Shown here: piece after piece, positions 34,436 to 60,736 of the stretch | How the letters are laid out: each line of letters opens with the position of its first letter | Position numbering within the stretch: position 1 is the stretch's first letter | From: Candidatus Levybacteria bacterium RBG_16_35_11 | GTDB lineage: Bacteria; Patescibacteriota; Microgenomatia; Levybacterales; UBA12049 | Reading direction: 5' to 3' | DNA length: 60,736 bases | Assembly: GCA_001781995.1 (NCBI GenBank) | Contig: MFNH01000071.1 | Coordinates: forward strand, 1 to 60,736 | Notes under the pieces: model-generated | The model's input: the letters and a program-made list of their open reading frames with translations, nothing else | What the model was told of the DNA's origin: nothing | Database searches by the model: none | Position numbers and translations under genes: made by a program

Positions 34436-35887
34436 ATGCGGCTTTTGAAGAGAATCCTCGTAAAGGATAAAGTTTGTTTTAGATTGCTTCTTTTCTGGGT
34501 TTTTATTCTTTCAATTGCCTATTCATCTCTTTCTCTTTTAAGACACATCCATTTTCAATCAGGCGCTTTTGATCTTGGAATATTTGATCAGACCATCTGG
34601 CAATACGCTCATTTTCTATCTCCAATAAACACAATTAAAGAAAAGTTTATTCTTGGCGATCACTTAAATCTTACTCTTCCTTTTCTTGCGCCCTTGTATT
34701 GGGTTTGGCAGGATGTCAAACTCTTACTTATTTTCCAGGCTTTTTTTATAACCTTTTCAGCAATTCCTATTTATAAAGTTTCAAGAATAAGGAAATTTTC
34801 TCCTTTTGTTTCATTATGTCTCTCCTTTATTTATAGCCTTTTTTTTGGGATTCAATTTGCTGTCTTTTTTGATTTTCACCCAATTGTTATAGGAGTTGGT
34901 CTCCTTACCTGGTTTATATATTTTTTTGAGGCAAAAAACCTGCCTGCCGGCAGGCAGGGAAAAAAACTGTTTTGGATATTTTTAACTTTAATACTTTTAA
35001 CCCAGGAAAATATGGGAATTGCCCTTTCAGGAATTGGTTTAATTTACCTTTTTAAAAAAGAATATAGAAAACCTGCAATATTATTTATTGTTGGAGGGTT
35101 GATAGTCAGTCTAACATCTGTAAAGATTGTGGGTTTGTTGTCTCAAACAGGATACCAATACTGGCCTTCTCTTAGTTTAAACCCTATTCAATTGCTTTCT
35201 AACTTTTTTGATTCACCAGAAAAAAGGTTAGTCTGGCTCTATTCATTTAGCTGGTTTACTTTTTTGCCAATTCTTTCTCCAGGAACAATCCTTGCTGTTT
35301 TTTTGGATCTTTCCCAATATTTTATTCCCCAAAAACAATTCGGGCATATGGTTACTCCCTTTTTACATCACAGGGCAATACTTGCTCCACTTATAACATT
35401 GGGTTTATTTGATGTTCTTTTATTTTTAAAAAAGAAAATAAATATATCTATTCTCGTTGTAATTTTAGTTTTAAGCTCAATAAGTCAGCAATTCATTTTT
35501 CATTTTCCACTTAATAAAATTTCAAAATTAAGTTACTGGCAAAATGAGCAATGGATGGATGATAATAGAAAATTATTTACCCTACTTCCAAAAGGAACAT
35601 CTGTTGCTGCTTCCCAGAATTTAGTTTCCCATTTATCACAAAGGAAAGAGATCTATCTTGTTTACCCAAGAATTAAAGATAATATTTGCAAAGGTTGCTG
35701 GTGGCTTGAATTTGCCGGAAAACCAGAGTATCTAGTTGTTGATCTTCATCCCAATCAGTGGGTGACTCAACTGCTTGAATCAAATGAAAATTTCCAAAGC
35801 GCAGTTAAAAATATGGAGAAAAAAGGAAAGATTGCAAAATTTAAAAACATCAACAACGCCTATATATATAAAATAAATTATAAATAA
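34436..35887 (+). CDS. DUF2079-like polytopic membrane protein (putative GT-C glycosyltransferase)
   Basis: SGAFDLGIFDQTIWQY motif near the N-terminus, then many TM segments. Confidence 0.65.
   Translation: MRLLKRILVKDKVCFRLLLFWVFILSIAYSSLSLLRHIHFQSGAFDLGIFDQTIWQYAHFLSPINTIKEKFILGDHLNLTLPFLAPLYWVWQDVKLLLIFQAFFITFSAIPIYKVSRIRKFSPFVSLCLSFIYSLFFGIQFAVFFDFHPIVIGVGLLTWFIYFFEAKNLPAGRQGKKLFWIFLTLILLTQENMGIALSGIGLIYLFKKEYRKPAILFIVGGLIVSLTSVKIVGLLSQTGYQYWPSLSLNPIQLLSNFFDSPEKRLVWLYSFSWFTFLPILSPGTILAVFLDLSQYFIPQKQFGHMVTPFLHHRAILAPLITLGLFDVLLFLKKKINISILVVILVLSSISQQFIFHFPLNKISKLSYWQNEQWMDDNRKLFTLLPKGTSVAASQNLVSHLSQRKEIYLVYPRIKDNICKGCWWLEFAGKPEYLVVDLHPNQWVTQLLESNENFQSAVKNMEKKGKIAKFKNINNAYIYKINYK
34939..34958. 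repeat. perfect 20-bp GC-rich palindrome inside the DUF2079-like CDS
   Basis: cctgcctgccggcaggcagg, flanked by A-runs on both sides; it encodes LPAGRQG. Confidence 0.9.
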
Positions 35888-35919
35888 ACAGTGTTAAAAG
35901 CGATGGTCAATTCACTTTT

Positions 35920-36615
35920 TTAACTTTTGTGGAAGAGTTTATTATAAACCCTCTTTATGGGTGAAAAAGGCTTTATTTCTTCCTCAACTGATTCCTCTTC
36001 ATTTCTTAATCTTTCTTCAGCCTCTTTTTCTATAAGATCCTGAATTAGGGGACTTGATGTAATTCTTCCAGCTGAAATTTCTTTTTCTAATTCCCAAACA
36101 CCTACATCAAGGCCACTATTTATTAACGTTAATAACAAAGTATTTAACTCTTCTGCCGTTGGAGCCTGAGCAAGCACGCTTTTTCTTAAAGCTGTAAACT
36201 GCTCTTTTCCCATCACGGTTTCTAGACGTTCGACATATTTCCAATTGCTATTATCTGGCTTAAGATCTGCGTCTCCGGCATAATATGTTGCACAAAGTGT
36301 GTAGCCATCGATTTCTGGAAGTTGCTCTAGAATTTTCATCGCTCGCAAAGTCTGAACAGCTTTATGGGGTATAATTAATCCCCAGCTGTAGCATGCACCA
36401 CTCTTATCTGGTAATTGATATCCTACGCCTAACTCTCCTAACCAATTTCTGTCCCCATAGACTATTGGGATGACTCTTTGCTGTTCTCCATCGACAATTT
36501 TTATAGTTTCTTGTCCGCTGAGGGCAATAAACCTGGTTTGACCTCTTTCTTGTTCTTGATGAGAAGTTCTTTCTGTCATGGGGGAGAATATATCATATGG
36601 GTAATGTGTTGTCAA
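35920..36615 (-). CDS. hypothetical cytoplasmic protein (231 aa)
   Basis: Intact ORF starting 13 nt downstream of tRNA-Glu. No motif recognised. Confidence 0.5.
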   Translation of the reverse strand: MTTHYPYDIFSPMTERTSHQEQERGQTRFIALSGQETIKIVDGEQQRVIPIVYGDRNWLGELGVGYQLPDKSGACYSWGLIIPHKAVQTLRAMKILEQLPEIDGYTLCATYYAGDADLKPDNSNWKYVERLETVMGKEQFTALRKSVLAQAPTAEELNTLLLTLINSGLDVGVWELEKEISAGRITSSPLIQDLIEKEAEERLRNEEESVEEEIKPFSPIKRVYNKLFHKS

Positions 36616-36628
36616 CTATGGGACTAAG

Positions 36629-36702: not shown

Positions 36703-36772
36703 TCAATGTTTATTTTACCTCAATTTAGCATCCTAAACAAGCTTATCTAGGTTTGTTTTGATTATTTTTTTC

Positions 36773-36781
36773 TTGTATAAT
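36773..36781 (+). promoter_or_regulatory. extended -10 TTGTATAAT, 6 nt upstream of GTG 36788
   Basis: Exact TGTATAAT lying inside the ORF-track N-terminal extension. Confidence 0.5.
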
Positions 36782-36787
36782 CTTTTT

Positions 36788-37540
36788 GTGAGCTCAATTA
36801 ACCTCTCTATAATAATTCCTTGTTACAACGAAATGATAAATCTTCAAAAAGGAGTTTTGGATAAAATTGAAAGTTTTTTAAAAAAGCAAGATTACACATG
36901 GGAAGTAGTTGTCTCAGACGACGGATCAAATGACGGAAGCGTGGAATTTGTAGAAAAATTCATTAAAGAAAATCCGCATTTTAGACTTTTAAAAAATGCC
37001 CATTTGGGAAAAGCAGGGGCAGTTACAACCGGAATGTTGGAAGGGAAAGGGGATTACCGCTTGTTTACAGACATGGATCAGGCAACCCCAATAGAAGAAA
37101 TTAACAATTTGCTTCCCTATATAAAAGATTACGATATTGTTATAGGTGGAAGAAATTCACAGCGAAAAGGAGCTCCTATAACAAGATTAATAATGGCAAA
37201 CGGAATGATTCTTTTAAGAAGAATTATTGTCGGAATTCCCCAGGTAAAAGATACTCAATGTGGTTTTAAGTTATTTAGAAAAGAGCCGGCTAAAAAAATC
37301 TTTAAAAAAATCAAAGAAATTAAAAAAGGATTTCATCAAATTTCAGGCTCTGCGGTAAAAGCAGGATTTGACGTAGAACTTTTGTTACTTGCAGAAAATT
37401 TGGGTTACAAAATTAAAGAAGTCCCCGTTGAATGGCTATATGTAGAAACAAGAAGAGTAAGTCCCGTAAAAGATTCAGTTGAAGGATTAATTGATTTATT
37501 TAGAATTAGGTTCAATAAAATTAAGGGAATATATAACTAG
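36788..37540 (+). CDS. GT2 polyprenyl-phosphate glycosyltransferase (Dpm1/GtrB/CsbB-like)
   Basis: SIIIPCYNE, VVVSDDGSNDGS and TDMDQ. The GTG start is inferred from the promoter position. Confidence 0.8.
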   Translation: MSSINLSIIIPCYNEMINLQKGVLDKIESFLKKQDYTWEVVVSDDGSNDGSVEFVEKFIKENPHFRLLKNAHLGKAGAVTTGMLEGKGDYRLFTDMDQATPIEEINNLLPYIKDYDIVIGGRNSQRKGAPITRLIMANGMILLRRIIVGIPQVKDTQCGFKLFRKEPAKKIFKKIKEIKKGFHQISGSAVKAGFDVELLLLAENLGYKIKEVPVEWLYVETRRVSPVKDSVEGLIDLFRIRFNKIKGIYN

Positions 37541-37550
37541 TAATTAGTTG

Positions 37551-38726
37551 ATGTTTAAATATTTAAAAATCGGATACTTTATTACCCTTTTCGGACTGTT
37601 AATTTATTCTTTTACTCAGGTAGATTTAAATTTAACTCTTTCACAAATTTCAATCTTTCAGACTGCCCAAAAATCTCTTCAACAGATAGGTTTTTTTAAC
37701 AGACCTTTATCTACAACCATTTATGTTTTATTAGCTGTTTTAATGTTCCTATTCTATTTTTCCTTTCTTTTTATGGCATGGAAGAAAAAGATCGTAGCTA
37801 AACATGCTTGGGTTTTAATTATCGGGGCAATTGTAATTTTGACTTTTTCCTACAATGCATTCTCTTATGACCTATTTAACTATATGTTTGACGCAAAGAT
37901 ACTATCCTTATATGGTCAAAACCCCTTTCTTCACAGGCCGCTTGATTTTACAGGTGATCCATGGTTAAACTTCATGCGCTGGACGCACAGAATTTATCCC
38001 TATGGACCAAGTTGGTTAATTCTAACCGTTCCCTTGTCTTTTATAGGTATGAATTATTTTCTACCAACTTTTTTTCTCTTTAAAGTTCTTATGGCTTTGT
38101 CATTTTTTGGCACCACTTACTTAATTTACAAGATTTCGGAAAAACTCTCTCCCCAAAATGTTGTCTTTAATTTAGTTTTTTGGGGACTTAATCCGCTTGT
38201 TTTAATCGAGGGACTGGTGTCAGCTCATAATGATATGCCAATGGCTTTTTTCGGCTTATTGTTCATTTACCTATTTATTAACAAAAAAATTACAGGTTCA
38301 TTATTATCTTATTTGTTTTCTATCGGCGTAAAGTATGCAACAGCAGTTTTATTTCCTGTAATTATTCTTCTTTTCTATCTTAAGCAAGCTAATAAAAAGA
38401 TTAATTGGGATAAAATATTTTTGTACTTTGTGGTTTTATCGGCAGGGGCAGTAGTTATTGCCACAGTCAGATCAACGTTTCAGCCTTGGTACCTTCTTTA
38501 TATTTTGCCTTTTGCTGCCTTAATCGCAAAGAAGCTATATGTTTTTATTCCAACTGTTGCAGCAACTATATTTGGCATTGCAATTTATGTTCCCTATGTA
38601 TTGCTGACAGATTACAGCAAGTCATATCCAGCCGTTGTTATGCAAATAGAATTAATCGGATTCCTTACAGTTGTTATTCTCTTAATTATTTTTTCCCTAA
38701 AAGCACATTTTAAAAAAGCTTCTTAA
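37551..38726 (+). CDS. polytopic membrane protein, DUF2029/GT87-like mannosyltransferase candidate
   Basis: The first loop, SYDLFNYMFDAKILSLYGQNPF...YPYGPSW, resembles the DUF2029 signature; about 11 TM segments. Confidence 0.5.
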   Translation: MFKYLKIGYFITLFGLLIYSFTQVDLNLTLSQISIFQTAQKSLQQIGFFNRPLSTTIYVLLAVLMFLFYFSFLFMAWKKKIVAKHAWVLIIGAIVILTFSYNAFSYDLFNYMFDAKILSLYGQNPFLHRPLDFTGDPWLNFMRWTHRIYPYGPSWLILTVPLSFIGMNYFLPTFFLFKVLMALSFFGTTYLIYKISEKLSPQNVVFNLVFWGLNPLVLIEGLVSAHNDMPMAFFGLLFIYLFINKKITGSLLSYLFSIGVKYATAVLFPVIILLFYLKQANKKINWDKIFLYFVVLSAGAVVIATVRSTFQPWYLLYILPFAALIAKKLYVFIPTVAATIFGIAIYVPYVLLTDYSKSYPAVVMQIELIGFLTVVILLIIFSLKAHFKKAS

Positions 38727-38749
38727 TTTGCTTCTTTTTAATTTTTTTA

Positions 38750-38757
38750 TGTATAAT
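38750..38757 (+). promoter_or_regulatory. extended -10 TGTATAAT, 6 nt upstream of ATG 38764
   Basis: Exact TGTATAAT inside the ORF-track extension. Confidence 0.5.
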
Positions 38758-38763
38758 CTTCCT

Positions 38764-40272
38764 ATGGGTTTCATTAGAAAAAACAAGCTACAAATACTTC
38801 TTTTTCTGCTTGTGGCCGCTCTCTATTTCTTAGTAAGACTACCTAATCTGTTAGTAATGCCGATATTTACTGATGAGGCAATTTACACCCGTTGGGCGCA
38901 GATAGCCTTAAATGATTCTAGCTGGAGGTTTATTTCCTTAACAGATGGGAAGCAACCTCTTTTTGTTTGGTTTGCAATGGTTTTTATGAAAGTAATTAAC
39001 GATCCTTTGGTTGCCGCAAGATTGGTTTCAGTAATATCCGGATTATTTACAATGTTTGGGCTTTGGTTCTTATCCTTCGAGCTATTCAAGGACAAAAGAA
39101 TTGCCCATTTGACATCAATTATTTATGTATTTTTTCCGTTTGCCCAAGTATATGACCGTATGGCATTAATGGATAGCATGGTTGGAACTTTTTCTATTTG
39201 GGCCTTCTATTTTTCCATTCTACTGGTTAGAAGAACAAGCTTAAGTATTGCTTATACATTAGGTTTTACGTTGGGTGCAGGAGCGCTAACAAAATCTTCA
39301 AACTTTTTTAGTATGTATTGTCTACCTTTTACTTTGCTTTTGTTTAATTTTAGTAAAAATCAATTACTGAGAAGATTCTTAAAGTGGGGGATACTTGCTA
39401 TTTTTGCGGTAGTGATTGCGCAGGTTATTTATTCAATTCTTAGACTTTCTCCTTTATTCTCAACAATAGCGGCAAAAAATGGAACATTTATTTACCCATT
39501 TTCAGAATGGATTAACCATCCTTTTACTTTTTTAATCGGAAATTTAAGTGCGCTCTGGGATTGGCTTTTCGGATATTTGGCAATTTCCTATTTAATATTA
39601 ATCCTAATTTCAGTTATTTTCATTTTTAAAGAATTTAAAGAAAAGTTATTGCTTATTGTGTATTTTGCGATTCCTTTTTTTGCCTTGGCTGTGTTTGGAA
39701 AATTAATTTATGCCCGTTTCATTTTCTTTATGAGTTTGTATCTTTTGCCCTTGGCAGGATGGGGACTTGTCTTTCTAATTGACCAACTTCGTTCGAAACT
39801 TAAAATTAACAAGCTTGGTTATATCCTAGTAGCTGTCTTTATTGCTTATCCTGCTTTTATATCTTTTACGCTTTTAACAAACCCTATTAACGCAATGATC
39901 CCAAACACAGATAAAAGCCAATATCTTAACAGTTGGGCTGCCGGATGGGGAGTAAAAGAAAGCATACAATTTATTGAAAAAGAGGCAAGAAAAGGGAAAG
40001 TATATGTTGCAACGGAGGGAACTTTTGGCCTAATGCCCGAATCACTAGAGCTTTATCTTGTTAAAAACAAAAACGTAACTATTAAAGGCTATTGGCCAAT
40101 AGACGAGTTTCCAAAAGAGGTGATTGATAGCTCAAAGAAGATGCAAACCTACTTTGTTTTTTATCAACCCGAACATAAAGTAATTCCTCATGAATGGCCA
40201 TTAAAATTAATTTTTCAAAAAAGAGAAGGAAATAGCAACTCTTATTTTAGATTTTATCAAGTAATTCCATAG
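38764..40272 (+). CDS. ArnT/PMT-like GT-C glycosyltransferase (GT39/83-like)
   Basis: First-loop motif PIFTDEAIYTRWA, then a polytopic region and a soluble C-terminal domain. Confidence 0.65.
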   Translation: MGFIRKNKLQILLFLLVAALYFLVRLPNLLVMPIFTDEAIYTRWAQIALNDSSWRFISLTDGKQPLFVWFAMVFMKVINDPLVAARLVSVISGLFTMFGLWFLSFELFKDKRIAHLTSIIYVFFPFAQVYDRMALMDSMVGTFSIWAFYFSILLVRRTSLSIAYTLGFTLGAGALTKSSNFFSMYCLPFTLLLFNFSKNQLLRRFLKWGILAIFAVVIAQVIYSILRLSPLFSTIAAKNGTFIYPFSEWINHPFTFLIGNLSALWDWLFGYLAISYLILILISVIFIFKEFKEKLLLIVYFAIPFFALAVFGKLIYARFIFFMSLYLLPLAGWGLVFLIDQLRSKLKINKLGYILVAVFIAYPAFISFTLLTNPINAMIPNTDKSQYLNSWAAGWGVKESIQFIEKEARKGKVYVATEGTFGLMPESLELYLVKNKNVTIKGYWPIDEFPKEVIDSSKKMQTYFVFYQPEHKVIPHEWPLKLIFQKREGNSNSYFRFYQVIP

Positions 40273-40278
40273 GGAATT

Positions 40279-42642
40279 ATGTCTTTATTTAAAAAAACCT
40301 GGACTTATCTCGTAATTTTAATTATTGTCCTTTCTTTTTTTGCCCCTGTATTTAAAGGCCAAATTCCGTTCCCCGGAGATTATCTTATAAACCAAAATCC
40401 TTATGGTAAAAGTTCATTTCTTGGGTATGCTCCGGCAGGGTATCCAACTAAAGGTCAAGGGATAGATGTTGTAAAAGAAATTTATCCCTGGCGTTATTTT
40501 TCCATTAATCAATTAAAAATTGGAGAGATACCATTTTGGAATCCCTATAATTTTTCCGGAAATCCTCAAGCGGCAAATTTTCAAACAGCTGCTTTTTATC
40601 CTTTAAACTTTTTTTATTTTCTGGTTCCCTTTGACCTTTCTTGGTCTATTTTAATTATGATCCAACCTTTACTTGCCGGGTTTTTTATGTTTCTTTTTTT
40701 AAACCGGGGCTTAAAACTTTCAAATGAATCAGCAGTGCTTGGGGCAATTTCCTTTGGCCTCTCGTCCTATATGACGGTTTGGCTTGAGTATGGGAATATT
40801 GGCAATACTTTCATGTGGCTTCCCCTTATTCTTTATTTAATAAAGAAAATATCCGCTAAAAATTCCGTTTTGAGCTTTATACTTTTAACTTTCTCATTTG
40901 TCTTTAGTTTATTGGCAGGTTATATTCAGGGATTTTTCTATGTTTTTGCGGTATCTTTCTTGTTTTTGCTTTTTACTGTTTTTACCTCTGATAAAAAAAA
41001 CAGATTTAAAACAATCTTTATATTTTTTTCATCTTTTATCGTTTCTTTAATGCTTACTTCTTTTCAATTACTTTCAACTTACCAAATCTTTCAACAATCT
41101 ACCCGCGGATCATACAGTCTTTCTCAGTTTTCAAACTTACTTCTCCCGCCGTATTATTTAATAACTTTTTTCTTCTCCGATTTCTTTGGAAACCAGGCAA
41201 CAAGAAATTACTGGTTAGATGGAACATATATAGAAAGAGTAATGTATGTTGGAGTCGCTTTTTCTTTTTTTGTTTTTTATGCGGTTAAAAAGGTAGGATC
41301 AAAAGAAAAACTTTTTTTCTTAATCCTTGGTGCAGTATCTCTTATTGTTGCGACCAATTTCCCGCTTATAAAATACCTATACTTAATTCCAATTCCCGTC
41401 ATTTCTACCACTGTCCCAACAAGAGAGCTCTCTGTTTTTATTTTCTCAACAATAGTTTTGGGGGCAATGGGTGTTAATTTTTGGCAGAAAAATCCAAACA
41501 AAAGCAGACTACCGATCTTTTTTCTTGGCTTTTTTATCCTTATTATTCTTGGAGAGTTTATTGCTTATGCTTTGGGATATTTCCCAAATGCAAATTTTAG
41601 AATAACGCTTCGAAACTCAATTTTACCCTTTACTCTTGCAGCACTTACCATTTTTACCTTTTATTTTAAAAAATATAACAAGAAAGTTGCTTTAACCTTG
41701 CTTTTTTTAATTATCATCTTAGACCTCTCCTATTTTTTTAATAAAATTACTCCGTTTTCTCCAAAAGAGTTAATTTATCCGCAAACTCCTGTTGTAAATT
41801 TTTTAAACAAAAACGCAGGAATCAACCGTTTTTGGGGTTATGGGAGCGCATATATTTCTCCTAATTTTCAAACTGTTGATAAAACTTACTCTCCTGAGGG
41901 AAATGACCCGCTTCATATTGTCCGATACGGAGAGCTTTTAGCTTCCTCAAGGGATGGAAAATTGCCGGAAGTTCTCCCAAGACCGGATGCAAATGTCGCA
42001 AGCGGTTTTGGAAAGGAAGACTTAAAATCTAATTTTTTTAGAAAAAGAACCCTGGATTTATTAGGAGTTAAATATATCTTAAATGAAAGCGTTGAAATGA
42101 AGGCGGATTTAACTACCTTCCCAGAAGCTTCATATAGTCTTGTCTGGCAAAAATCCCCTTTTCAGATATATGAAAATAAAGCTGCGCTTCCAAGGTTTTT
42201 TTTGGCAAATAACTATGCAGTTAAAAGGGATAAAAATGATATTTTAAATTCCATTTACGATAAGAATTTAGACCTAAGAAAAACTCTTATTTTAGAAGAA
42301 GAACCCAAAATTTCAATTAACAAGGAAACAAAAGGGTCAGTTTCTTTAATTTCATATAAGCCTAATCAAGTTGAATTTAAAACTAAAAGTAATGGAAATT
42401 CACTTCTTTTTCTTTCCGATAATTATTTCCCTGGATGGGAAGTAAGAATGGATGGAAAAAAATGGCACTTGCAAAGAGCTAATTACACCTTCAGAGCAGT
42501 GCCTGTGCCTGAAGGTGAACATGCAGTTATAATGAACTATAGCCCGCAACTATTTAATTTTGGATTAAAAATCGGTGCCTTTGGCTTAATTTTACTCATT
42601 TTAATGTCTTTAGGAATAAAGTTTTATGAAAAGAAAAGTTAA
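40279..42642 (+). CDS. YfhO-family membrane glycosyltransferase, paralog 1
   Basis: PFWNPYNFSGNPQAANFQTAAFYPLN and C-terminal FPGWEVRMDGKK...RANYTFRAVPVPEGEH. Confidence 0.78.
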   Translation: MSLFKKTWTYLVILIIVLSFFAPVFKGQIPFPGDYLINQNPYGKSSFLGYAPAGYPTKGQGIDVVKEIYPWRYFSINQLKIGEIPFWNPYNFSGNPQAANFQTAAFYPLNFFYFLVPFDLSWSILIMIQPLLAGFFMFLFLNRGLKLSNESAVLGAISFGLSSYMTVWLEYGNIGNTFMWLPLILYLIKKISAKNSVLSFILLTFSFVFSLLAGYIQGFFYVFAVSFLFLLFTVFTSDKKNRFKTIFIFFSSFIVSLMLTSFQLLSTYQIFQQSTRGSYSLSQFSNLLLPPYYLITFFFSDFFGNQATRNYWLDGTYIERVMYVGVAFSFFVFYAVKKVGSKEKLFFLILGAVSLIVATNFPLIKYLYLIPIPVISTTVPTRELSVFIFSTIVLGAMGVNFWQKNPNKSRLPIFFLGFFILIILGEFIAYALGYFPNANFRITLRNSILPFTLAALTIFTFYFKKYNKKVALTLLFLIIILDLSYFFNKITPFSPKELIYPQTPVVNFLNKNAGINRFWGYGSAYISPNFQTVDKTYSPEGNDPLHIVRYGELLASSRDGKLPEVLPRPDANVASGFGKEDLKSNFFRKRTLDLLGVKYILNESVEMKADLTTFPEASYSLVWQKSPFQIYENKAALPRFFLANNYAVKRDKNDILNSIYDKNLDLRKTLILEEEPKISINKETKGSVSLISYKPNQVEFKTKSNGNSLLFLSDNYFPGWEVRMDGKKWHLQRANYTFRAVPVPEGEHAVIMNYSPQLFNFGLKIGAFGLILLILMSLGIKFYEKKS

Positions 42643-44176: not shown

Positions 44177-44185
44177 TTGTATAAT
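44177..44185 (+). promoter_or_regulatory. extended -10 TTGTATAAT, 6 nt upstream of ATG 44192
   Basis: Exact TGTATAAT inside the ORF-track extension. Confidence 0.5.
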
Positions 44186-44191
44186 ACGGAT

Positions 44192-49886: not shown

Positions 49887-50638
49887 GAAAAATTAGCGCA
49901 ATCATAATTGCAAAAGATTCTGCTGAGTCTATAGCAAAAACACTTGACTCTGTTTCATTCTGTGACCAGGTAATCGTTGTTAACAATGATTCAAAAGACA
50001 ATACGGCAAAAATTGCAATGGATAAAAAAGCAGAAGTTTTTGACTATTCAGGCGATAACTTTTCAGAGATTAGAAATTTCGGACTCAAAAAAGCAGAAGG
50101 GGATTTTGTGCTGTATGTTGACTCTGATGAAATTATCAGTGAAGCGCTAAGGATGGAAATATTAAAAATTCTAAAAGGGGATTTTCTAAAATCAAGTTAC
50201 TTTGTAATGAGAAAAAACTTCTATTTTGGCAATTACCAATGGCCAAAAGAGGAAAAAATCGAGAGACTGTTTCTAAAAAGTGCTCTAAAGGGTTGGCAAG
50301 GTAGGATTCACGAAAGCCCAATGGTCTTAGGAGAAAAAGGCATGTTAAAAGGATATCTTTTACACTATACCCATAAAGATTTAACCTCTATGTTAAATAA
50401 AACAATTGAGTGGTCAAAAATAGAAGCAGATCTTCGTTTTAGATCGAACCATCCTAAAATGACGTGGTGGAGGTTTCCAAGAGTTATGATAACTGCTTTT
50501 TTTGACTCTTATTTTAAAAAGAGGGGATACAAGGCAGGAACAATTGGAGTTATTGAAAGCATTTTTCAAGCCTACAGTGCTTTTACCACCTATGCAAGAC
50601 TCTGGGAAATGCAGCAGAAAAATGAAAAAAATCCTTAA
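49883..50638 (+). CDS. GT2 glycosyltransferase
   Basis: SAIIIAKD and VDSDE; similar in layout to the 48064 gene. Confidence 0.8.
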   Translation: MRKISAIIIAKDSAESIAKTLDSVSFCDQVIVVNNDSKDNTAKIAMDKKAEVFDYSGDNFSEIRNFGLKKAEGDFVLYVDSDEIISEALRMEILKILKGDFLKSSYFVMRKNFYFGNYQWPKEEKIERLFLKSALKGWQGRIHESPMVLGEKGMLKGYLLHYTHKDLTSMLNKTIEWSKIEADLRFRSNHPKMTWWRFPRVMITAFFDSYFKKRGYKAGTIGVIESIFQAYSAFTTYARLWEMQQKNEKNP

Positions 50639-52937: not shown

Positions 52938-53136
52938 ACCTCTTTTTAGCAAATCCAAAAAGGTAAACAAGCTCCAAAATGCCGACGGTGTTAAAAATTA
53001 ACATTACAATAAACCAGATTCGTTGGTTAAGGGTTGCCGCTCTCCATAAAGCAAGTCCCTTCCACAAAAGAGACCAAATAAAAATTATAAATAGGGAAAT
53101 AGGTGAAAATTGTCCAAGGTCAGGGACTCCAGCCAT
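52906..53136 (-). CDS. small two-TM membrane protein (DUF5652-like?)
   Basis: WKGLALWRAA...NTVGILELVYLF. It is the only minus-strand gene inside the supercluster. Confidence 0.45.
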   Translation of the reverse strand: MAGVPDLGQFSPISLFIIFIWSLLWKGLALWRAATLNQRIWFIVMLIFNTVGILELVYLFGFAKKRFKISELKFWK

Positions 53137-53166
53137 AAAATAATTATTACACCAAATACATTAAGT

Positions 53167-53194
53167 TTGCAAGAGGTATAAAAACTGATAAAAT
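53167..53194 (+). promoter_or_regulatory. promoter TTGCAA-16nt-TAAAAT, 7 nt upstream of GTG 53202
   Basis: TTGCAA at 53167-53172 and TAAAAT at 53189-53194. Confidence 0.45.
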
Positions 53195-53201
53195 AAAGTG
53201 T

Positions 53202-54269
53202 GTGAAAGTAGGCATTTTTGACCCTTATTTGGATGATTTAGGCGGCGGGGAAAAATACATGATGAAAATTAGTCAGTGCCTTGTCGACAATAACGATGTT
53301 TACGTATTTTGGGACGAAAAAAAAGACCTTATAAGACTAAAAGAAAGATTTCTTCTTGATCTTTCAAGAATAAAAATTACTAAGAATATCTTTTCGAAAA
53401 ACATAACCCGTCTTAAAAGATTTTCGGAAAGCAGAAAATACGATGTTATTATTGTTTTAAGTGATGGGAGCATACCCTTGCTTTCCGCTAAAAAACTATT
53501 TATCCATTTTCAGCAACCGCTTAATATTAAAGCTAATTTTAATACCAAACTTAAGATAAAAAGAGTTAAAGGTTTTTTTTGCAATTCTTATTTCACCAAA
53601 TCTTATGTTGATAAATCATTTGGAATAAATTCACAAGTGCTGTATCCACCAGTTGAACTTAAACCAAAAAATCTTAAAAAAGAAAATATTATTCTCCATG
53701 TCGGTCGATTCAGAGTAAGACATGTTGGAAATGCGACAATAGATTATAAAAAACAAGATTTTATGATCGGAGTCTTTAAAAAAATGGTAAATAACGGACT
53801 TAAAAACTGGAAATTTATTTTAGCAGTTAGCGTTAAAGAGAATGAGCAAGAGCTATTTGAAGAACTTATTAAGAAAGCAAAAGGTTTTCCAATAGAATTT
53901 TTAATAAGTAAAAACAATGATCAGTTATGGGATGCCTATTCAAGAGCGAAAATTTACTGGCATGCTTCTGGATTTGGAGAAAATTTAGAGGATCATCCCG
54001 AATATGCGGAACATTTCGGTATTTCAACAGTTGAAGCAATGGGAGCAGGGGCGGTACCGGTTGTAATTAATGCAGGGGGACAAAAAGAAATTGTTAAAGA
54101 TAATGAAAATGGCCTTTTGTGGATAACGGAAGACGAATTAATCGAAAAAACAATGCTTTTAACAGCAGATGAAAAAAAGAGAGTTAAACTTTCTCAAAAT
54201 GCTATTAATAGAGCTAAGTTTTTTTCAGGCGAACGCTTTTGCAGAGAACTTGTAGAAATAATTGGATGA
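53202..54269 (+). CDS. GT4 (GT-B fold) glycosyltransferase
   Basis: EHFGISTVEAMGAGAVPVV (EX7E region). Confidence 0.85.
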   Translation: MKVGIFDPYLDDLGGGEKYMMKISQCLVDNNDVYVFWDEKKDLIRLKERFLLDLSRIKITKNIFSKNITRLKRFSESRKYDVIIVLSDGSIPLLSAKKLFIHFQQPLNIKANFNTKLKIKRVKGFFCNSYFTKSYVDKSFGINSQVLYPPVELKPKNLKKENIILHVGRFRVRHVGNATIDYKKQDFMIGVFKKMVNNGLKNWKFILAVSVKENEQELFEELIKKAKGFPIEFLISKNNDQLWDAYSRAKIYWHASGFGENLEDHPEYAEHFGISTVEAMGAGAVPVVINAGGQKEIVKDNENGLLWITEDELIEKTMLLTADEKKRVKLSQNAINRAKFFSGERFCRELVEIIG

Positions 54270-56518
54270 AGAAATTTGTTTTTATTCCGTTATTTTTAAT
54301 AATAACGATAATTTTCTTTTACCCGACTTTTTTAAAAGGATTATTGCCAATTCCTTCAGATACAGTAGTTGGTTTATATCATCCATTTAGGGATTTTTTT
54401 GCTAATCAATTTCCTAATGGAATACCTTTTAAGAATTTCCTCTTAACAGATCCTGTTAGGCAGCAATATCCTTGGAAAGAATTGTCAATCTCCCTGCTTA
54501 AGATAAACGAGCTTCCCCTTTGGAATCCATTCAACCTTTCAGGGACACCACTTTTGGCAAATTTTCAATCTTCTCCCTTTTATATTTTAAACATAATGCT
54601 TTTTTTTATGCCGTTTAAATACGGCTGGTCACTTTTGGTAATCTCTCAGATTTTTCTCTCCTGCCTATTTCTATATCTTTATTTAAAAAATCTTAAATTA
54701 AGTATCGGTGCTTCCATCTTTGGCGCTCTTGCCTTTTCCTTTTCTGGGTTTTCAATAGCCTGGCTTGAATGGGGAACAATTCTCCAAACAGCGCTGTGGC
54801 TTCCCTTAATTCTTTATTCAATCGACAAAGTCTTTTTCTCTAAGAAAAAAACTTTTTATTTAATATTATTAATTCTTTCACTTTGCTTTTCTCTTTTTGC
54901 AGGTCATCCTCAGCTTTCTTTTTACGTTTTAATTTTTTTTGTAGCCTATTTTTTCTCCCGTTTTCTACAACAACGAAAGAAAGAGTTTATCTTAATATTT
55001 TTCTATACTGTTATTCCTTTTTTGGTAATAACTTCTATTCAGTGGTTGCCATCTTTGCAATTTAATTTTCTTTCGGCAAGATCCATTGACCAAAATTGGC
55101 AAATTGAAGGATGGTTTATTCCTTGGCAAAACTTAATTCAGTTTATAGCCCCGGATTTTTTTGGAAACCCCGCAACATTAAACTATTGGGGAATCTGGAA
55201 TTACGGAGAGCTTGTTAATTATTTGGGAATTCTCCCTTTTATCTTTGGAGTTTTTTGTCTTTTTTATAGGAAAGACAGAAAAACACTATTTTTTGGAACT
55301 GCTTTTTTCCTTTCACTTATTTTTTCCCTTCCTACAATATTTGCAAAGCTTCCGTATTTATTTAAGGTTCCTTTAATTTCCGGTTTTCAACCAACCCGCC
55401 TAAACTTTATTACCGATTTTTCTATGGCTGTATTGGCAGCAATGGGAATTGATTATTTTGCGAAGCAAAAGACGGATAGTCACTTTTATAAGAAAAAAAA
55501 GAATGTTTTTTATCCGGTTATTTTTACGGGTTTAATTTTAGTAGTGCTTTGGGTTTTTGTTCTAAAGGGAGATTTACTTTTAAAACAAATATCCTCTTCA
55601 GATTTGCTGGTATCAAAAAATAATCTTTATCTTCCCACACTAATATTCTTAGTAAGTATTCTTATCCTTTTTCTTTCGGTTTTTAAGAAAAAAAAGGAAA
55701 TTTTTTATAGCTTAATTATTCTGGTTTTAATTTTCGATCTCTTCCGTTTTGGCTGGAAATTTACTCCTTTTTCTTCGGCTAATTATCTTTTCCCAAATAC
55801 AAAGATAACAACCTTTCTGGAAAAAGCAGAAAAACCTTTTAGAATTATGTCTTCCGATTCAAGGATTTTACCGCCTAATTTTTCAAGCGTTTATAAAATA
55901 GAAAGCATAGAAGGCTATGATCCTCTTTATTTACTTAGATACGGAGAACTTATTGCCGCCATGGAGAGGGGGAAACCGGATATTTCCCCACCCTTTGGAT
56001 TTAACAGAATCATTACGCCTCATAATTATAAATCTCCATTAATTAATTTATTAGGAGTAAAGTATCTTCTTACCTTTGACGAAGTTTTCGACCAAGGCTT
56101 TAATAAAGTTTTGTCAGAAGGAAAAACGAATGTCTATGAAAATAAAAATGCTTTACCAAGAGCTTTTTTTATAGAGCAAACAATTAATGCTAAAAACAAA
56201 CAAGAGGCAATTAATCTTTTATTTAAAAATAGTGCAAGTTTAAATAAGTTAGCGATTGTAGAGGGAGCAAGTAATATAAATTTAAAGAATTGGACAGTAG
56301 GAGAGGCTAAGATATTGGAATATAAGGAAAATAAAATAATAATTGAAACCGAAAATAGAAAAGAAGGATTTTTGGTTTTAACGGATAGCTTTTATCCGAC
56401 ATGGCATGTTAAGATTAACGGGAATGAAGGTTCGATTTACAGGACGGATTATAATTTTAGGGGAGTAATTATTCCTGCAGGATCTCATAAAGTAGAATTT
56501 TATAATACCCTTTTCTAA
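54266..56518 (+). CDS. YfhO-family membrane glycosyltransferase, paralog 3
   Basis: PLWNPFNLSGTPLLANFQSSPFY and C-terminal FYPTWHVKINGNE. The ATGA overlap with the GT4 gene sets the start. Confidence 0.78.
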   Translation: MKKFVFIPLFLIITIIFFYPTFLKGLLPIPSDTVVGLYHPFRDFFANQFPNGIPFKNFLLTDPVRQQYPWKELSISLLKINELPLWNPFNLSGTPLLANFQSSPFYILNIMLFFMPFKYGWSLLVISQIFLSCLFLYLYLKNLKLSIGASIFGALAFSFSGFSIAWLEWGTILQTALWLPLILYSIDKVFFSKKKTFYLILLILSLCFSLFAGHPQLSFYVLIFFVAYFFSRFLQQRKKEFILIFFYTVIPFLVITSIQWLPSLQFNFLSARSIDQNWQIEGWFIPWQNLIQFIAPDFFGNPATLNYWGIWNYGELVNYLGILPFIFGVFCLFYRKDRKTLFFGTAFFLSLIFSLPTIFAKLPYLFKVPLISGFQPTRLNFITDFSMAVLAAMGIDYFAKQKTDSHFYKKKKNVFYPVIFTGLILVVLWVFVLKGDLLLKQISSSDLLVSKNNLYLPTLIFLVSILILFLSVFKKKKEIFYSLIILVLIFDLFRFGWKFTPFSSANYLFPNTKITTFLEKAEKPFRIMSSDSRILPPNFSSVYKIESIEGYDPLYLLRYGELIAAMERGKPDISPPFGFNRIITPHNYKSPLINLLGVKYLLTFDEVFDQGFNKVLSEGKTNVYENKNALPRAFFIEQTINAKNKQEAINLLFKNSASLNKLAIVEGASNINLKNWTVGEAKILEYKENKIIIETENRKEGFLVLTDSFYPTWHVKINGNEGSIYRTDYNFRGVIIPAGSHKVEFYNTLF

Positions 56519-56538
56519 ATGGAGATACATTTTTCTAT

Positions 56539-57480
56539 ATGAAAGTAAGTGTAGTTATACCAAATTATAACGGGGAGAGTTTACTGAGAAAGAATTTGCC
56601 GAAAGTAATTGAAGCAATTGAAAAACACGATGATGAAAAAGAAATAATTATTACTGATGACTCATCTATCGATTCATCAAAAGAGATTGTTGAGGAGGTT
56701 AAAAAACAAAACAAGAATATAAAAATAACTTTTCTTAAGTCAAATGAAAATAAGGGATTTTCTTCAAACATAAACAGGGGAGTAAAAAAAGCAACCGGAG
56801 AAGTTTTAATTTTATTAAATACCGATGTTTCTCCTGACCCCCTCTTTTTAAAACCACTTTTAAAACATTTTAGAAATAAAGATGTTTTTGCAGTCGGCTG
56901 TTTGGAAAGAAGCATTGAAGCTGACGGAAACGTAGTCTTAAGAGGAAGAGGAGTAGGGATTTGGAAGAGAGGCTTTTTAGTGCATAAAAGAGGTGAGGTA
57001 AATAGGGAAGATACCTTATGGGTGAGCGGAGGAAGCGGGGCATTTAAAAAGGAGATCTGGGATAAAATAGGGGGCTTTAATTCTCTTTATGACCCTTTTT
57101 ACTGGGAAGATATAGATCTTTCCTACAGAGCAGTTAAGTCGGGGTATAAAATTTTGTTTGAACCCGACAGTTTGGTAAAACATGAACATGAGCAAGGGGC
57201 AATAAAAAGTAAATACTCAAAAGAACAGGTAAAAAAAATTGCATATAGAAACCAAGTTATATTTACCTGGCTTAATCTTACGGATAAAAAACTATTGTTT
57301 TCTCACTTTATATTTATTCCATACCACTTAATAAAAGCCATTTTAAGAGCTGATCCCCTTTTCTTATCAGGATTTTTTAAGGCTTTAATTTTACTTCCGA
57401 AAATCTTAAAATGTAGAAAACAAAATAAGCAAATTTTCCTAAAAAGCGATATTGCGGTAATTGCAGACCTAACTGAATGA
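56539..57480 (+). CDS. GT2 glycosyltransferase
   Basis: [19 protein letters not shown] and LNTDV. Confidence 0.85.
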
Positions 57481-58196
57481 AATTATCCATAATAATTCCA
57501 GTATTTAATGAAGAAAAAACAATAGCAACAGTTCTAAAAAGGATAAATAATTTAAAGTTAGAGAACGTTGTTAAAGAAATTATTGTTGTCGATGACGGGT
57601 CTGCCGATAGCACTTCTTACGAGATAAAAAATTTTTTAGCAACCAATAGAAACAAAATCCTTTTCTTAAAACATATAAAAAATCAGGGAAAGGGTGCAGC
57701 GGTAATAACTGGAATTAAAAAGGCAACTGGGGACTACATTATAATTCAGGATGCGGATTTGGAATATGACCCAAGGTATATAGAAAGACTGTTGAAGCAA
57801 ATCAACAGGGAGGGAAATAACGTAATTTACGGAACACGGCTTAAGAGATTACCTCATTTAAAACAGGAAGAAAGAACTCTTCAGTTCCTAACTCATTATC
57901 TTGGGAACAGATTCTTAAGCTTCACAACAAGCGTTCTATACGGCCAGTGGATTACCGATATGGAGACTGGATACAAATTATTTCCAAAGAAAGCTGTTAG
58001 AAAAATGAAATTGAATGCTAGGGGGTTTGAATTTGAGCCAGAAATAACATCTAAACTATTAAAGGCTGGTTATAAAATTAAAGAAATTCCAATTACGGCG
58101 AATCCACGAGGATATAATGAAGGTAAAAAATTAAATACTGCAAAAGATGGAGCTAAAGCTTTCTGGTCCCTTTTGAAATATAGGTTTACCGATTAA
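57477..58196 (+). CDS. GT2 polyprenyl-phosphate glycosyltransferase (Dpm1/GtrB-like)
   Basis: [20 protein letters not shown] and QDADLEYDP; 239 aa. Confidence 0.85.
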
Positions 58197-58197
58197 A

Positions 58198-59925
58198 ATG
58201 CTGAAAAAAAAGAATTTATTGCGTAAGCAACAAACTTGTTTATTCCTTCTTTTAATAATTATCTTGGGTGCATTCCTAAGATTTTACAAGTTGGGAATAG
58301 TTCCAAATGGTTTTCATGTAGATGAGGCATATTTGGGCTATAATGCTTTTTCAATTTTAAAAACCGGAAAAGAGATTACAGGAGATTTCCTACCTCTTAA
58401 TTTAAAATCCTTTCTATATAGTCCCGCAGGATATTCTTATTTTTCCATCCCTTTTATCTCTTTATTCGGGTTAAGTGAATTTTCTACAAGGTTTGCTTCA
58501 GCACTTTTTGGAACTGCAACAATACCTATGGCATTTTTACTTGTTAAAAAGATGTTCTCTCGTTTTAGCTCCAAAGACTCACTGGCTTTGATATCGTCTT
58601 TTATTTTTGCCATTACCCCCTGGCACATTAATCTTTCCAGGGTTTCAACGGAAAACATTTTAGTTGTTTTTTTTGTAACGGTTGGTGCTTTTCTTTTTTT
58701 AAAATGGCTAAATGAGAAAAGAATTTATCTGGTTTTGCTTTCAATGTTTTCTTTTTTCATTACTATTTTTATTTATCAGGCATCAAGAAGTTTTTTACCG
58801 ATTTTTATACCTTGGCTTTTTATTTATGGCCTTTTTTTAAAAAAACTAAGAGCAAAAAAATTTTTGTTACCATTAACAATATATTTTCTGTTAATAATTC
58901 TACCTGTTTTTTTAATTCTTAGATCGCCGGAATTGTCATTTAGAATGAAGACTTTATCAATTTTTCAAAACCCCTCTACTCAACTGGTCCTTGATGAACG
59001 AATAAGAGAGGACGGGGTTTTGGGAATAGGTCCTTCCCAATCCCGTTTTTACCACAATAAATTAATTAACTACTCACAAACTTTTTTTAAAAATTATTCT
59101 GAGCATTTTTCCTTTGAATTTTTATTTACGGATTCCGGTCTTCCCGATAGATACAGGGTAGCCGGGGCAGGTCTTCTCTATATTTTTGAACTTCCTCTTT
59201 TACTTTTGGGATTGTGGTTTTTATTTAGGACTGATAAAAAAATTGGTTTTTTCATAACTGGCTGGGTTCTGGTTGCTCCCATAGGTAGCGCATTGACTTT
59301 CGATGATATCCCTAATTTGCAAAGAACACTACTTGTCTTTCCGGCTATTTCAATATTATCTTCGCTCGGTCTCATTTTTGCCTTTAACTATCTAAAAAGA
59401 AGCATTAAGCGTAACTATTTTTTAAAAGCAATTTATTTTATAACGTTTCTAATTATTGGTTATAATTTTTCTTTTTATCTCCATAATTATTATTTTAATA
59501 ATCTAGTTCATAGGCCTTGGTATAGAAATGAGGGATATAAAGAATTAGTTTCAAAAATTAATTCAAATTTATCAAATTATGATAAAGCAATAATAGCCGA
59601 ATCCGGATCAAGTCCAACCATTTTTTTATTATTCTACAATCGTTACGATCCACTCAAGATTCAACGAATAATAAAAGTATTTAGTACTACAAAATATGGA
59701 AGCATTTCTTTTGATAAATACCAAATAACAGAGGAAAAATGTCCTGTAAGAGTCGAAAAGGCAGTGAGTAAAGCGACCGGCAAAAAAGAAGATCTGTTTG
59801 TCGGAGAAAAGAGCATATTGTATGTAAATGAGGGTACCTGCAAGATCCCCAAACAGGCAAGGTTAATATCAGAAGTAAATAGACCGGATGGAACTGTAGC
59901 TTTTAAGTTAGTATCTCTAAAATGA
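58198..59925 (+). CDS. ArnT/PMT-like GT-C glycosyltransferase
   Basis: First-loop motif FHVDEAYLGYNAF, then a polytopic region and a soluble C-terminal domain. Confidence 0.65.
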   Translation: MLKKKNLLRKQQTCLFLLLIIILGAFLRFYKLGIVPNGFHVDEAYLGYNAFSILKTGKEITGDFLPLNLKSFLYSPAGYSYFSIPFISLFGLSEFSTRFASALFGTATIPMAFLLVKKMFSRFSSKDSLALISSFIFAITPWHINLSRVSTENILVVFFVTVGAFLFLKWLNEKRIYLVLLSMFSFFITIFIYQASRSFLPIFIPWLFIYGLFLKKLRAKKFLLPLTIYFLLIILPVFLILRSPELSFRMKTLSIFQNPSTQLVLDERIREDGVLGIGPSQSRFYHNKLINYSQTFFKNYSEHFSFEFLFTDSGLPDRYRVAGAGLLYIFELPLLLLGLWFLFRTDKKIGFFITGWVLVAPIGSALTFDDIPNLQRTLLVFPAISILSSLGLIFAFNYLKRSIKRNYFLKAIYFITFLIIGYNFSFYLHNYYFNNLVHRPWYRNEGYKELVSKINSNLSNYDKAIIAESGSSPTIFLLFYNRYDPLKIQRIIKVFSTTKYGSISFDKYQITEEKCPVRVEKAVSKATGKKEDLFVGEKSILYVNEGTCKIPKQARLISEVNRPDGTVAFKLVSLK

Positions 59926-60515
59926 AAAGACAAAAAAGGGCAACACGAGGATACGGTTTGCTTGAAAATTTTCTGGCAAAAAAGAGAGCAGATAAAGCAG
60001 ACCTCTTAATACCCGAAGATTTAAGATCAGGGAGAATACTTGATATCGGATGCGGATCATATCCATATTTTCTTCTTAATACAAAATTTAAAGAAAAATT
60101 TGGAATAGATCCCTCAATACATAATCTCTCAGTCCAAAACGGGGTTAATTTAGAAAGAGCAAAAGCTGAAAAAAAGCTTCAATTTGGAAACGATTTTTTT
60201 GATGTGGTTACAATGCTTGCGGTTTTTGAACACATAGACAGCAAGAAAATCAATTATCTATTAAATGAAGTTAAAAGAGTTTTAAAAAAAGACGGTTTAT
60301 TTATCATCACTACACCTTCACCCTGGGCGGACTATCTCCTTCACGCAATGGGAAAAGTGGGACTCATAAGCTCACAGGAAATTAATGAACATAAACACAA
60401 CCATAAAAGAAAAAAAATAGAAAGCATGATTGAAGAAGCAGGTTTTGACCGAAAAAAAATCAAAAGCGGTTTTTTTGAATTTTATGCAAATATGTGGTTT
60501 GTCGTTAGTAAATGA
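59922..60515 (+). CDS. class I SAM-dependent methyltransferase
   Basis: ILDIGCGSY motif I and FDVVTMLAVFEHI. Confidence 0.8.
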   Translation: MKRQKRATRGYGLLENFLAKKRADKADLLIPEDLRSGRILDIGCGSYPYFLLNTKFKEKFGIDPSIHNLSVQNGVNLERAKAEKKLQFGNDFFDVVTMLAVFEHIDSKKINYLLNEVKRVLKKDGLFIITTPSPWADYLLHAMGKVGLISSQEINEHKHNHKRKKIESMIEEAGFDRKKIKSGFFEFYANMWFVVSK

Positions 60516-60736
60516 AAAAATTTAACTTATCCAATAAATTAATTCTTTATTTGATCTTAGGATTATCGTTTCTATTAAGGTTTTATAATTACCCAAACAG
60601 ATGGGGATTGGCATATGATCAGGCAAGAGACGTACTTGTCTCAACTTATGCGCTACATAACAGCCTAATCCCAGCTATCGGACCATTTTCTTCGGCTGGG
60701 CAGTTTGTTTACGGACCTCAATGGTTTTGGATAATC
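60512..60736 (+). CDS. ArnT-like GT-C membrane protein, 5' partial (runs off the window)
   Basis: ATGA overlap start. MKKFNLSNKLILYLILGLSFLLRFYN...AYDQARD resembles the N-termini of the other ArnT-like genes. Confidence 0.55.
   Translation, partial: MKKFNLSNKLILYLILGLSFLLRFYNYPNRWGLAYDQARDVLVSTYALHNSLIPAIGPFSSAGQFVYGPQWFWII

Follow-up and report, generated by a model that had tools for sequence, protein, structure and literature searches.

We analysed a 60,736-bp stretch of DNA (the window), which is the entire contig C71 of a metagenome-assembled genome (MAG) of Levybacteria, from the class Microgenomatia within the candidate phyla radiation (CPR). The parent assembly comprises 1.23 Mb in 72 contigs, is 82% complete and has a GC content of about 33%. 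The nearest public proteins were those of Candidatus Levybacteria, with a top identity of 79% (RBG_16_35_6). From 34.4 kb to the contig end the window is occupied by an array of genes for glycosylation enzymes, all on the + strand. Families were assigned with Pfam and NCBIfam. The array encodes nine complete polytopic proteins of the glycosyltransferase (GT) type GT-C and a 75-amino-acid (aa) fragment of a tenth. The complete ones are a DUF2079 protein, an MptA_B-family protein, two PMT_2 proteins, three YfhO proteins and two proteins related to YfhO and PTPS, named short YfhO (sYfhO) here. The remaining genes encode three short GT2 enzymes resembling Dpm1, ArnC and dolichol-phosphate mannose synthase (DPMS), four further GT2 enzymes, one GT4, one Wzx flippase and one methyltransferase. 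An earlier reading of this DNA, the original prediction, had listed these glycosylation genes. They were confirmed gene by gene, and its count of ten GT-C-like genes holds as nine complete genes plus the fragment.

Gene order and enzyme families

The 5' edge of the array is formed by the DUF2079-family GT-C-like membrane protein (34418..35887; 489 aa, about 8 transmembrane (TM) helices; Pfam PF09852, E-value 7.7e-44). It is followed by the short Dpm1/DPMS-type GT2s_a (36758..37540; Pfam Glycos_transf_2, 1.3e-25), whose real start is probably near 36788. The next gene encodes the MptA_B-family GT-C protein (37548..38726; 392 aa, about 9-11 TM helices). The original prediction had called it DUF2029-like, which fits its precomputed label PF26314 MptA_B_family. 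Then come the PMT_2/ArnT-type GT-C protein PMT2_a (38728..40272; 514 aa; Pfam PMT_2, 1.4e-13), the long YfhO-family protein YfhO_1 (40279..42642; 787 aa; Pfam YfhO, 4.2e-39) and the two short YfhO paralogs. The first of these, sYfhO_1 (42626..44167; 513 aa), gave weak YfhO and PTPS_related matches and a fold match, and sYfhO_2 (44177..45922; 581 aa) matched Pfam PTPS_related at 2.7e-5. The second short synthase-like gene, the ArnC/DPMS-type GT2s_b (45919..46629; 236 aa, no TM helix), matched ArnC in the Protein Data Bank (PDB) at 7.8e-19. The MOP/Wzx-type flippase Wzx_1 (46616..48067; 483 aa, about 11-12 TM helices) matched Pfam Polysacc_synt_3 at 1.9e-46 and the NCBIfam MOP flippase family at 7e-30.

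Three cytoplasmic GT2 genes stand downstream of the flippase, namely GT2_1 (48064-48972), GT2_2 (48969-49886) and GT2_3 (49883-50638), with Glycos_transf_2 E-values of 2e-20, 2e-13 and 1e-11, respectively. The open reading frame (ORF) of the second long YfhO protein, YfhO_2 (50502..52937; Pfam YfhO, 1e-27), overlaps GT2_3, and its real start is probably the ATG near 50622. The array continues with the GT-B-fold enzyme GT4_1 (53202..54269; Pfam Glycos_transf_1, 3.5e-20), YfhO_3 (54239..56518; 759 aa; Pfam YfhO, 1e-23), the cytoplasmic GT2_4 (56539..57480; 313 aa; Glycos_transf_2, 8e-27) and the third short enzyme, the DPMS/AglJ-type GT2s_c (57477..58196; 239 aa, no TM helix; PDB DPMS 5mlz, 4.6e-20). 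The last complete genes encode the PMT_2/ArnT-type GT-C protein PMT2_b (58198..59925; 575 aa; Pfam PMT_2, 3.1e-6) and the S-adenosylmethionine (SAM)-dependent methyltransferase MT_1 (59922..60515; 197 aa; Pfam Methyltransf_23, 4e-15). The third ArnT/PMT-like gene of the original prediction proved to be the 75-aa N-terminal fragment at 60512..60736, which is open at the contig end and of PMT_2 type by homology. It showed 52% identity to the N-terminal end of a PMT_2-type gene (503 aa) that directly follows GT2s_c in the array of a relative (G014), and 33-35% identity to PMT_2-type ORFs of its own genome.

The packing of the array is operon-like. Adjacent genes overlap or lie at most 20 bp apart, with a 264-bp gap (52938-53201) as the sole exception. 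GT2s_b overlaps sYfhO_2 by 4 bp and Wzx_1 by 14 bp, and the gaps are 7 bp between GT2s_a and MptA_B and 1 bp between GT2s_c and PMT2_b. The 264-bp gap holds a TTGCAA-16-TAAAAT site with an extended TG (53166-53194), about 8 nt before the GTG start of GT4_1, which would fit a leaderless-type promoter geometry. In a promoter and terminator scan of the region, the predicted sites were no commoner than in shuffled sequence, and we therefore claim no operon boundary beyond this gap.

The assignment of the polytopic proteins to GT-C was supported by domain searches, folds and TM counts together. Pfam matches to YfhO, PMT_2 and DUF2079 placed proteins in GT-C families, and a crude hydropathy scan predicted 7-12 TM helices in all nine complete candidates; the end fragment was assigned to GT-C by homology alone. 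Searches of the PDB by sequence and profile gave no match for the GT-C proteins, and matches came from the fold search alone. The AlphaFold2 (AF2) model of sYfhO_1, with a predicted local distance difference test (pLDDT) score of 88.9, has a GT-C_A-type membrane core, and its C-terminal part consists of a beta-sandwich and one last TM helix, as in the C-terminus of YfhO. With Foldseek this model matched STT3 (1.8e-5), AftD, AglB, PglB and ArnT at E-values of 1.8e-5 to 1e-3, and also AftA, all at probability 1.0. The two short YfhO proteins are 31% identical to each other by BLAST. The model of the MptA_B protein had a pLDDT of 89.4, and its best Foldseek matches were all GT-C enzymes (STT3, PIG-M, ALG3 and PimE), but weak ones.

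An acidic motif (D, DD or DE) just after the first TM helix, in the putative first extracytoplasmic loop, was found in YfhO_1, YfhO_3, sYfhO_1, sYfhO_2, MptA_B, PMT2_a and PMT2_b. The motif is invariant among orthologs: the DE of FTDEAIY in PMT2_a in 52 of 52, the DE of PMT2_b in 7 of 7, the Asp of PFPGD in YfhO_1 in 29 of 29, the DD of sYfhO_1 in 48 of 48 and D25 of MptA_B in 40 of 40. The YfhO_2 orthogroup has PFPS[T/S/K]Y in place of the PFPGDY of YfhO_1 and YfhO_3, with the D in 4 of 38 orthologs. It keeps a second Asp of the same loop (D101), which is invariant and stands ahead of a YPW motif. Since the first-loop Asp is replaced while D101 is retained, the catalytic or acceptor role of YfhO_2 may differ from that of the other two. 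We rejected the idea that YfhO_2 is a dead enzyme on account of the invariant D101. For the array GT-C proteins as a group, sugar transfer is predicted on the outer side of the membrane.

The three short GT2 enzymes had as their closest solved structures the Dol-P-Man synthase of P. furiosus, ArnC and GtrB. The top PDB match of GT2s_a was DPMS 5mlz (3e-14), followed by ArnC and GtrB, and the match of GT2s_c to the same structure covered residues 1-218. In NCBIfam, GT2s_b matched ArnC (7e-22) and AglJ (3e-19), and GT2s_c matched AglJ (9e-35) and PpgS (8e-17), in each case under the curated cut-offs. No C-terminal TM helices were predicted in any of the three. Synthases without a membrane anchor include human DPM1, the catalytic domain of Ppm1, and PpgS, and the short enzymes, having no membrane helices, are nearer to these than to GtrB or CsbB. 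They are putative polyprenyl-phosphate-sugar synthases. The enzyme classes of the original prediction, GT2 enzymes of the lipid-phosphate-sugar synthase type and GT-C enzymes, thus agree with the predictions by family and fold. Its statement that the window lacks nucleotide-sugar synthesis and priming genes was borne out as well, as none was found among the window ORFs tested with Pfam. Bac_transf and Glycos_transf_4 genes were absent from the window, the genome's copies lying on contigs C44 and C40. The Pfam scan also gave no Wzy-like match among the window ORFs, although no search aimed at Wzy was made.

Extent, age and variable positions

The array runs off the end of C71, and the window holds the first 24-26 kb of an array of about 50 kb. 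Among relatives from the window's own family and order, MptA_B marks one edge of a multi-YfhO block, and a second paralog of it is found another 38-54 kb along the same strand. We labelled the ORFs of seven relatives' regions from two families against the proteins of the window's own genome. The first half of these arrays reads GT2s_a, MptA_B, PMT2_a, YfhO_1, sYfhO_1, sYfhO_2, GT2s_b, Wzx, three GT2, YfhO_2, GT4, YfhO_3, GT2, GT2s_c, PMT2_b and methyltransferase. Three to five PMT_2 genes follow, and the last block contains PMT_2, sYfhO, GT2, a GalE-like epimerase, MptA_B_2, sYfhO, GT4, a second Wzx, a short GT2, GT4 and PMT_2.

Two contigs of the window's own genome correspond to the later part of these arrays. 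C70 carries four tandem PMT_2 genes. C32 carries PMT_2, two sYfhO, MptA_B_2, three NAD-dependent epimerase/dehydratases, a second Wzx, GT4, GT2 and a methyltransferase. The array is continued on other contigs of the genome, C70 and C32 being placed downstream of C71 by synteny with the relatives and not by assembly. No exact overlap joining the 3' end of C71 to another contig was found. A continuation of the end fragment into C70 or C32 was considered and rejected, the genes there being different paralogs. Paralogs of PMT2_b lie on C70, C66 and C15. As C32 carries three sugar epimerase/dehydratases, the nucleotide-sugar genes that are missing from the window lie in the second half of the array. 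In total the array encodes about five short synthases and about 20 GT-C enzymes. The genes of the 24-kb cluster described by the original prediction are present, but the cluster does not end there.

The gene order was widely conserved. Three close contigs, 66-71% identical, share that of the window, and the backbone order was kept in all 65 public loci that encode a relative of sYfhO_1, including records of Gottesmanbacteria, Woesebacteria and the 'Microgenomates group'. Among 301 evenly sampled genomes of Patescibacteria, 6 of the 16 from the window's class had the MptA_B anchor gene, the window's own genome left out, and none of the roughly 284 from other classes did. Within the order, with the own genome counted, YfhO was present in 30 and the anchor gene in 32 of 41 genomes. 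Both are missing from several genomes with a completeness above 92%.

A tree built by maximum likelihood from 51 proteins of the YfhO superfamily resolved YfhO_1, YfhO_2, YfhO_3, sYfhO_1, sYfhO_2 and two sYfhO groups of the C32 type. Support by the Shimodaira-Hasegawa-like approximate likelihood ratio test (SH-aLRT) was 100 for six of the seven groups, the YfhO_3 orthogroup among them, and 95 for the clade holding YfhO_1. All seven groups mix families, and YfhO_2, sYfhO_1 and sYfhO_2 also include other candidate phyla. The orthologs of the paralogs hold the same position in other Levybacteria families, in Gottesmanbacteria and in Woesebacteria, and orthologs of MT_1 were found at the same array position in G022 and G027. 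Orthologs are 45-80% identical between genomes, as against 25-35% for paralogs within a genome; YfhO_3 is by BLAST 35% identical to YfhO_1 and 36% to YfhO_2. Because each paralog groups with its orthologs across lineages, the duplications are ancient, and by the tree the expansion is an old one and not a recent diversification. Taken with the gene order, the array is an ancient conserved trait of the class Microgenomatia, held by Levybacteria, Gottesmanbacteria, Woesebacteria and others. The original prediction had suggested that the density of paralogs could underlie surface variation. A picture of recently duplicated modules that drive such variation is at odds with these identities and with orthogroups that span lineages. 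Its related view of a variable cluster is largely contradicted by lineage-wide synteny, the outcome that it had itself named as speaking against it; the exceptions are a few variable slots and the loss of the array in about a quarter of the related genera.

The array also occurs in many public MAG records that bear the title 'uncultured Gammaproteobacteria bacterium' and in one that is called 'Pacearchaeota archaeon' (L027, L029-L031 and L036 are among these loci). The identities of their proteins to those of the window are about the same as for records named Levybacteria, and the taxon labels of these records look wrong.

Variation was limited to a few slots. The most variable one is that of YfhO_1, flanked by PMT2_a and sYfhO_1, where 0-3 GT-C genes are found and both orientations occur. 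The sYfhO_2 slot is occupied by members of two divergent clades (SH-aLRT 98-99) with a patchy distribution, 64-74% identical to the window copy in some genomes and 31-40% in others (L001, L003, L029, L052, G022 and G030). The similarly close contigs L001 and L003 carry different classes, which suggests that sYfhO_2 has been replaced by recombination at this single position. Extra ORFs occur at a few positions in the relatives' arrays. In G025 (G025:C2; L018-L020) an insertion of about 10 kb separates GT2_2 from the next sYfhO gene, at about 14.4-24.4 kb of the oriented array, which is otherwise conserved; the inserted ORFs are unrelated, and some of them run on the other strand. The DUF2079 gene is found at the 5' edge only in some relatives, with the order Lon-DUF2079-GT2s_a in G022 and L031, and is absent in L024 and L030.

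Flanking genes and genome context

The window contains a tRNA-Glu gene that flanks the array. Between the DUF2079 gene and this tRNA gene lies a 231-aa ORF on the - strand (35920-36615), with no Pfam or NCBIfam match and no predicted TM helix. No counterpart of it was labelled among the relatives' regions examined. At the corresponding site, directly upstream of the first gene of the array, contig L001 has a Replic_Relax relaxase and a large serine recombinase (847-3992). An origin of the array as a genomic island at the tRNA-Glu gene was rejected for the backbone, given the unchanged GC content and the conservation across the class.

The remainder of the contig has the same GC content as the array. 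By Pfam and NCBIfam it carries housekeeping genes, namely those for MetK, RecJ, Lon, a CCA-adding enzyme, two aminoacyl-tRNA synthetases, Nramp-like transporters and a D-Ala-D-Ala carboxypeptidase. Glycan tailoring could be the role of four genes at 23189-28197, which encode two SAM methyltransferases, a GDSL hydrolase and a carbamoyltransferase of the NodU/CmcH type; the Nramp operon and Lon stand between them and the array. Bases 1-62 of the window are identical to the final 62 bases of contig C35, and because of these identical ends C35 lies directly upstream of C71 in the genome. Among its genes are a long YfhO and, at C35:24283-26978, a GT2-GtrA fusion followed by PMT_2, the one canonical pair of its kind in the genome.

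Iterated profile searches found at least 31 GT-C-like ORFs in the genome, amounting to 4.5% of the 1.23-Mb assembly, so the GT-C density that the original prediction had called unusual is indeed so. Glycan support genes outside the array are UppS, one MraY/WecA-family gene, three Bac_transf, four sugar-phosphate nucleotidyltransferases and one LCP ligase.

Possible products of the array

We give about an even chance to the reading that the array makes one complex cell-surface glycan, assembled largely outside the membrane. A phosphoglycosyl transferase encoded elsewhere, such as one of the three Bac_transf proteins, would prime polyprenyl phosphate. The cytoplasmic enzymes GT2_1 to GT2_4 and GT4_1 would extend the lipid-linked oligosaccharide, MT_1 may methylate it and Wzx_1 would flip it across the membrane. 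The soluble Dpm1/DPMS-type enzymes GT2s_a, GT2s_b and GT2s_c would in turn make polyprenyl-phosphate monosaccharides. These donors would be used outside the cell by the ten GT-C enzymes, each adding a distinct residue or linkage. Transfer of the product to the final acceptor would then fall to at least one GT-C enzyme or to the single LCP ligase of the genome.

The known multi-component transmembrane glycosylation systems include CsbB/GtcA/YfhO, GtlA/GtcA/GtlB, GtrA/GtrB/GtrV and ArnC/ArnT (PMC8035078). Like these, the array combines GT-A-fold GT2 enzymes related to GtrB, ArnC and DPMS with GT-C transferases of the YfhO and PMT_2 families, and transfer from polyprenyl-phosphate donors outside the cytoplasm is predicted for it too. 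It differs from them in having Wzx instead of a GtrA-type flippase, and the membrane helices that GtrB, CsbB and ArnC have at the C-terminus are missing from its short GT2 enzymes. The known systems consist of pairs, with 1-3 pairs per genome, whereas the ratio of synthases to GT-C enzymes is 3 to 10 in the window and about 5 to about 20 in the array. In addition, these enzymes of the array are accompanied by Leloir GTs, epimerases and methyltransferases, all within a single conserved block that measures about 50 kb.

The original prediction had suggested several parallel modules, and the corresponding explanation is that independent pairs of a lipid-phosphate-sugar synthase and a GT-C enzyme each decorate a different pre-existing polymer, protein or lipid. 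GT2s_a does stand directly upstream of MptA_B and GT2s_c of PMT2_b, GT2s_b overlaps the end of sYfhO_2, and the enzyme classes agree with known systems (PMC8035078). However, three donor synthases for ten GT-C genes do not make one-to-one pairs, and no GtrA flippase is encoded in the array. Wzx, five Leloir-type GTs and the epimerases of the second half amount to a full assembly pathway, which goes beyond decoration, and the components are held together in fixed order across the class. We consider this explanation unlikely. A single multi-step pathway is favoured over decoration pairs because of the 3:10 ratio and the absence of GtrA from the array, and also because Wzx, the Leloir-type GTs, epimerases and methyltransferases are present and every paralog is a separate conserved orthogroup.

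Precedents for protein O-glycosylation are the actinobacterial Ppm1/Pmt enzymes and the streptococcal Pgf system (PgfS/PgfM1/PgfM2). The array could likewise serve mainly this purpose, its PMT_2, YfhO and MptA_B enzymes acting on proteins that are secreted or exposed at the surface, for instance pili, adhesins or S-layer proteins. The PMT_2 matches point this way, as do the matches of the YfhO C-termini to NCBIfam PgfM1 and PgfM2 (1e-8 to 7e-10) and of the short GT2 enzymes to PgfS and AglJ, but the Pgf, AglJ and PMT_2-type matches fall far under the family cut-offs. No acceptor protein is encoded in the array, and twenty GT-C enzymes far exceed any known protein-glycosylation system. In Firmicutes, moreover, PMT_2 and YfhO enzymes mostly target teichoic acids and wall polysaccharides (PMC8035078), and we regard a main role in protein glycosylation as improbable. 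A strain-variable surface-antigen island that diversifies fast for phage escape or host change would account for the 0-3 GT-C genes of the YfhO_1 slot, the two patchily distributed sYfhO_2 classes, the insertion in G025, the relaxase and recombinase upstream of one relative's array and the tRNA-Glu flank. The order of the backbone is nevertheless kept in the 65 public loci and in both Levybacteria families sampled, orthologs are as little as 45% and at most 80% identical, the GC content does not change, and the tree contains no recent duplications. The antigen-island explanation is very improbable and, by the conserved synteny, largely refuted.

Several observations weigh against the reading of a single surface glycan as well. 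The short GT2 enzymes fall under the curated cut-off of every named NCBIfam family, and the match of MptA_B to solved GT-C folds is poor (E-value 0.018 or worse, TM-score 0.27-0.38). No GtrA-type flippase is encoded in the array, the sole PF04138 match of the genome being the domain fused to GT2 on C35. No Wzy-type polymerase or ligase was identified in the array either, with Wzy not searched for separately. Between 9 and 11 of the 41 relatives lack the anchor genes, and for this reason the glycan would not be essential. The conserved order is no proof of a single product either, and one conserved operon could give several.

Two other kinds of loci were compared with the array. Like Wzx/Wzy-type, lactococcal pellicle and streptococcal rhamnose-polysaccharide loci, it combines Wzx and several cytoplasmic GT2 and GT4 enzymes with GT-C enzymes acting after export, and an LCP ligase is present in its genome. 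Unlike in these loci, the GT-C enzymes outnumber the cytoplasmic GTs, and the array yielded no Wzy polymerase (again without a separate search), no chain-length regulator and no priming transferase. The second comparison is with mycobacteria and corynebacteria, in which lipomannan (LM), lipoarabinomannan (LAM) and arabinogalactan (AG) are assembled by Ppm1, PimE, MptA/MptB/MptC, EmbA-C and AftA-D. The array resembles mycobacterial LM/LAM/AG synthesis most closely, by analogy of its genes. In both, as far as the array can be read from its genes, few lipid-linked monosaccharide donors serve many non-redundant GT-C enzymes, which build, or in the array would build, a large glycan outside the membrane. 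Both also have a donor synthase, putative in the array, with no membrane anchor of its own (compare PpgS and the catalytic domain of Ppm1) and a member of the MptA_B family, and the sYfhO fold matches AftD and AftA. In contrast, the host of the array is an unrelated CPR lineage without a mycolate envelope, the dominant GT-C families are YfhO and PMT_2 and not Emb and Aft, and the genes are contiguous where the mycobacterial ones are scattered.

A wider proposal, which we put forward tentatively and give rather less than an even chance, is that the array encodes an assembly line whose product is a polymer that defines the envelope of Microgenomatia. About 20 non-redundant GT-C enzymes would put this large heteroglycan together, mostly on the outside of the membrane, in a manner like that of mycobacterial LAM and arabinogalactan synthesis. 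It would be an independent development of ultra-small CPR bacteria and may serve in their attachment to host cells, while the few variable slots (the sYfhO_2 alleles and the region of YfhO_1) would tune its structure. Our literature searches, which combined Patescibacteria, CPR, Microgenomates and Levybacteria with glycosyltransferase topics, found no paper describing the array. It offers a compact natural set of about 20 distinct GT-C enzymes for study; two of the families represented, the 500-aa short YfhO proteins and the MptA_B-like proteins, lack any characterised member. The genomes of CPR bacteria are tiny, their way of life is probably one of attachment to other cells, and almost nothing of their envelopes has been characterised. 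That GT-C genes take up about 4.5% of the DNA of such a genome, and that the order of the array is kept across several candidate phyla, suggests a major surface glycan that is important to the lifestyle of these bacteria.

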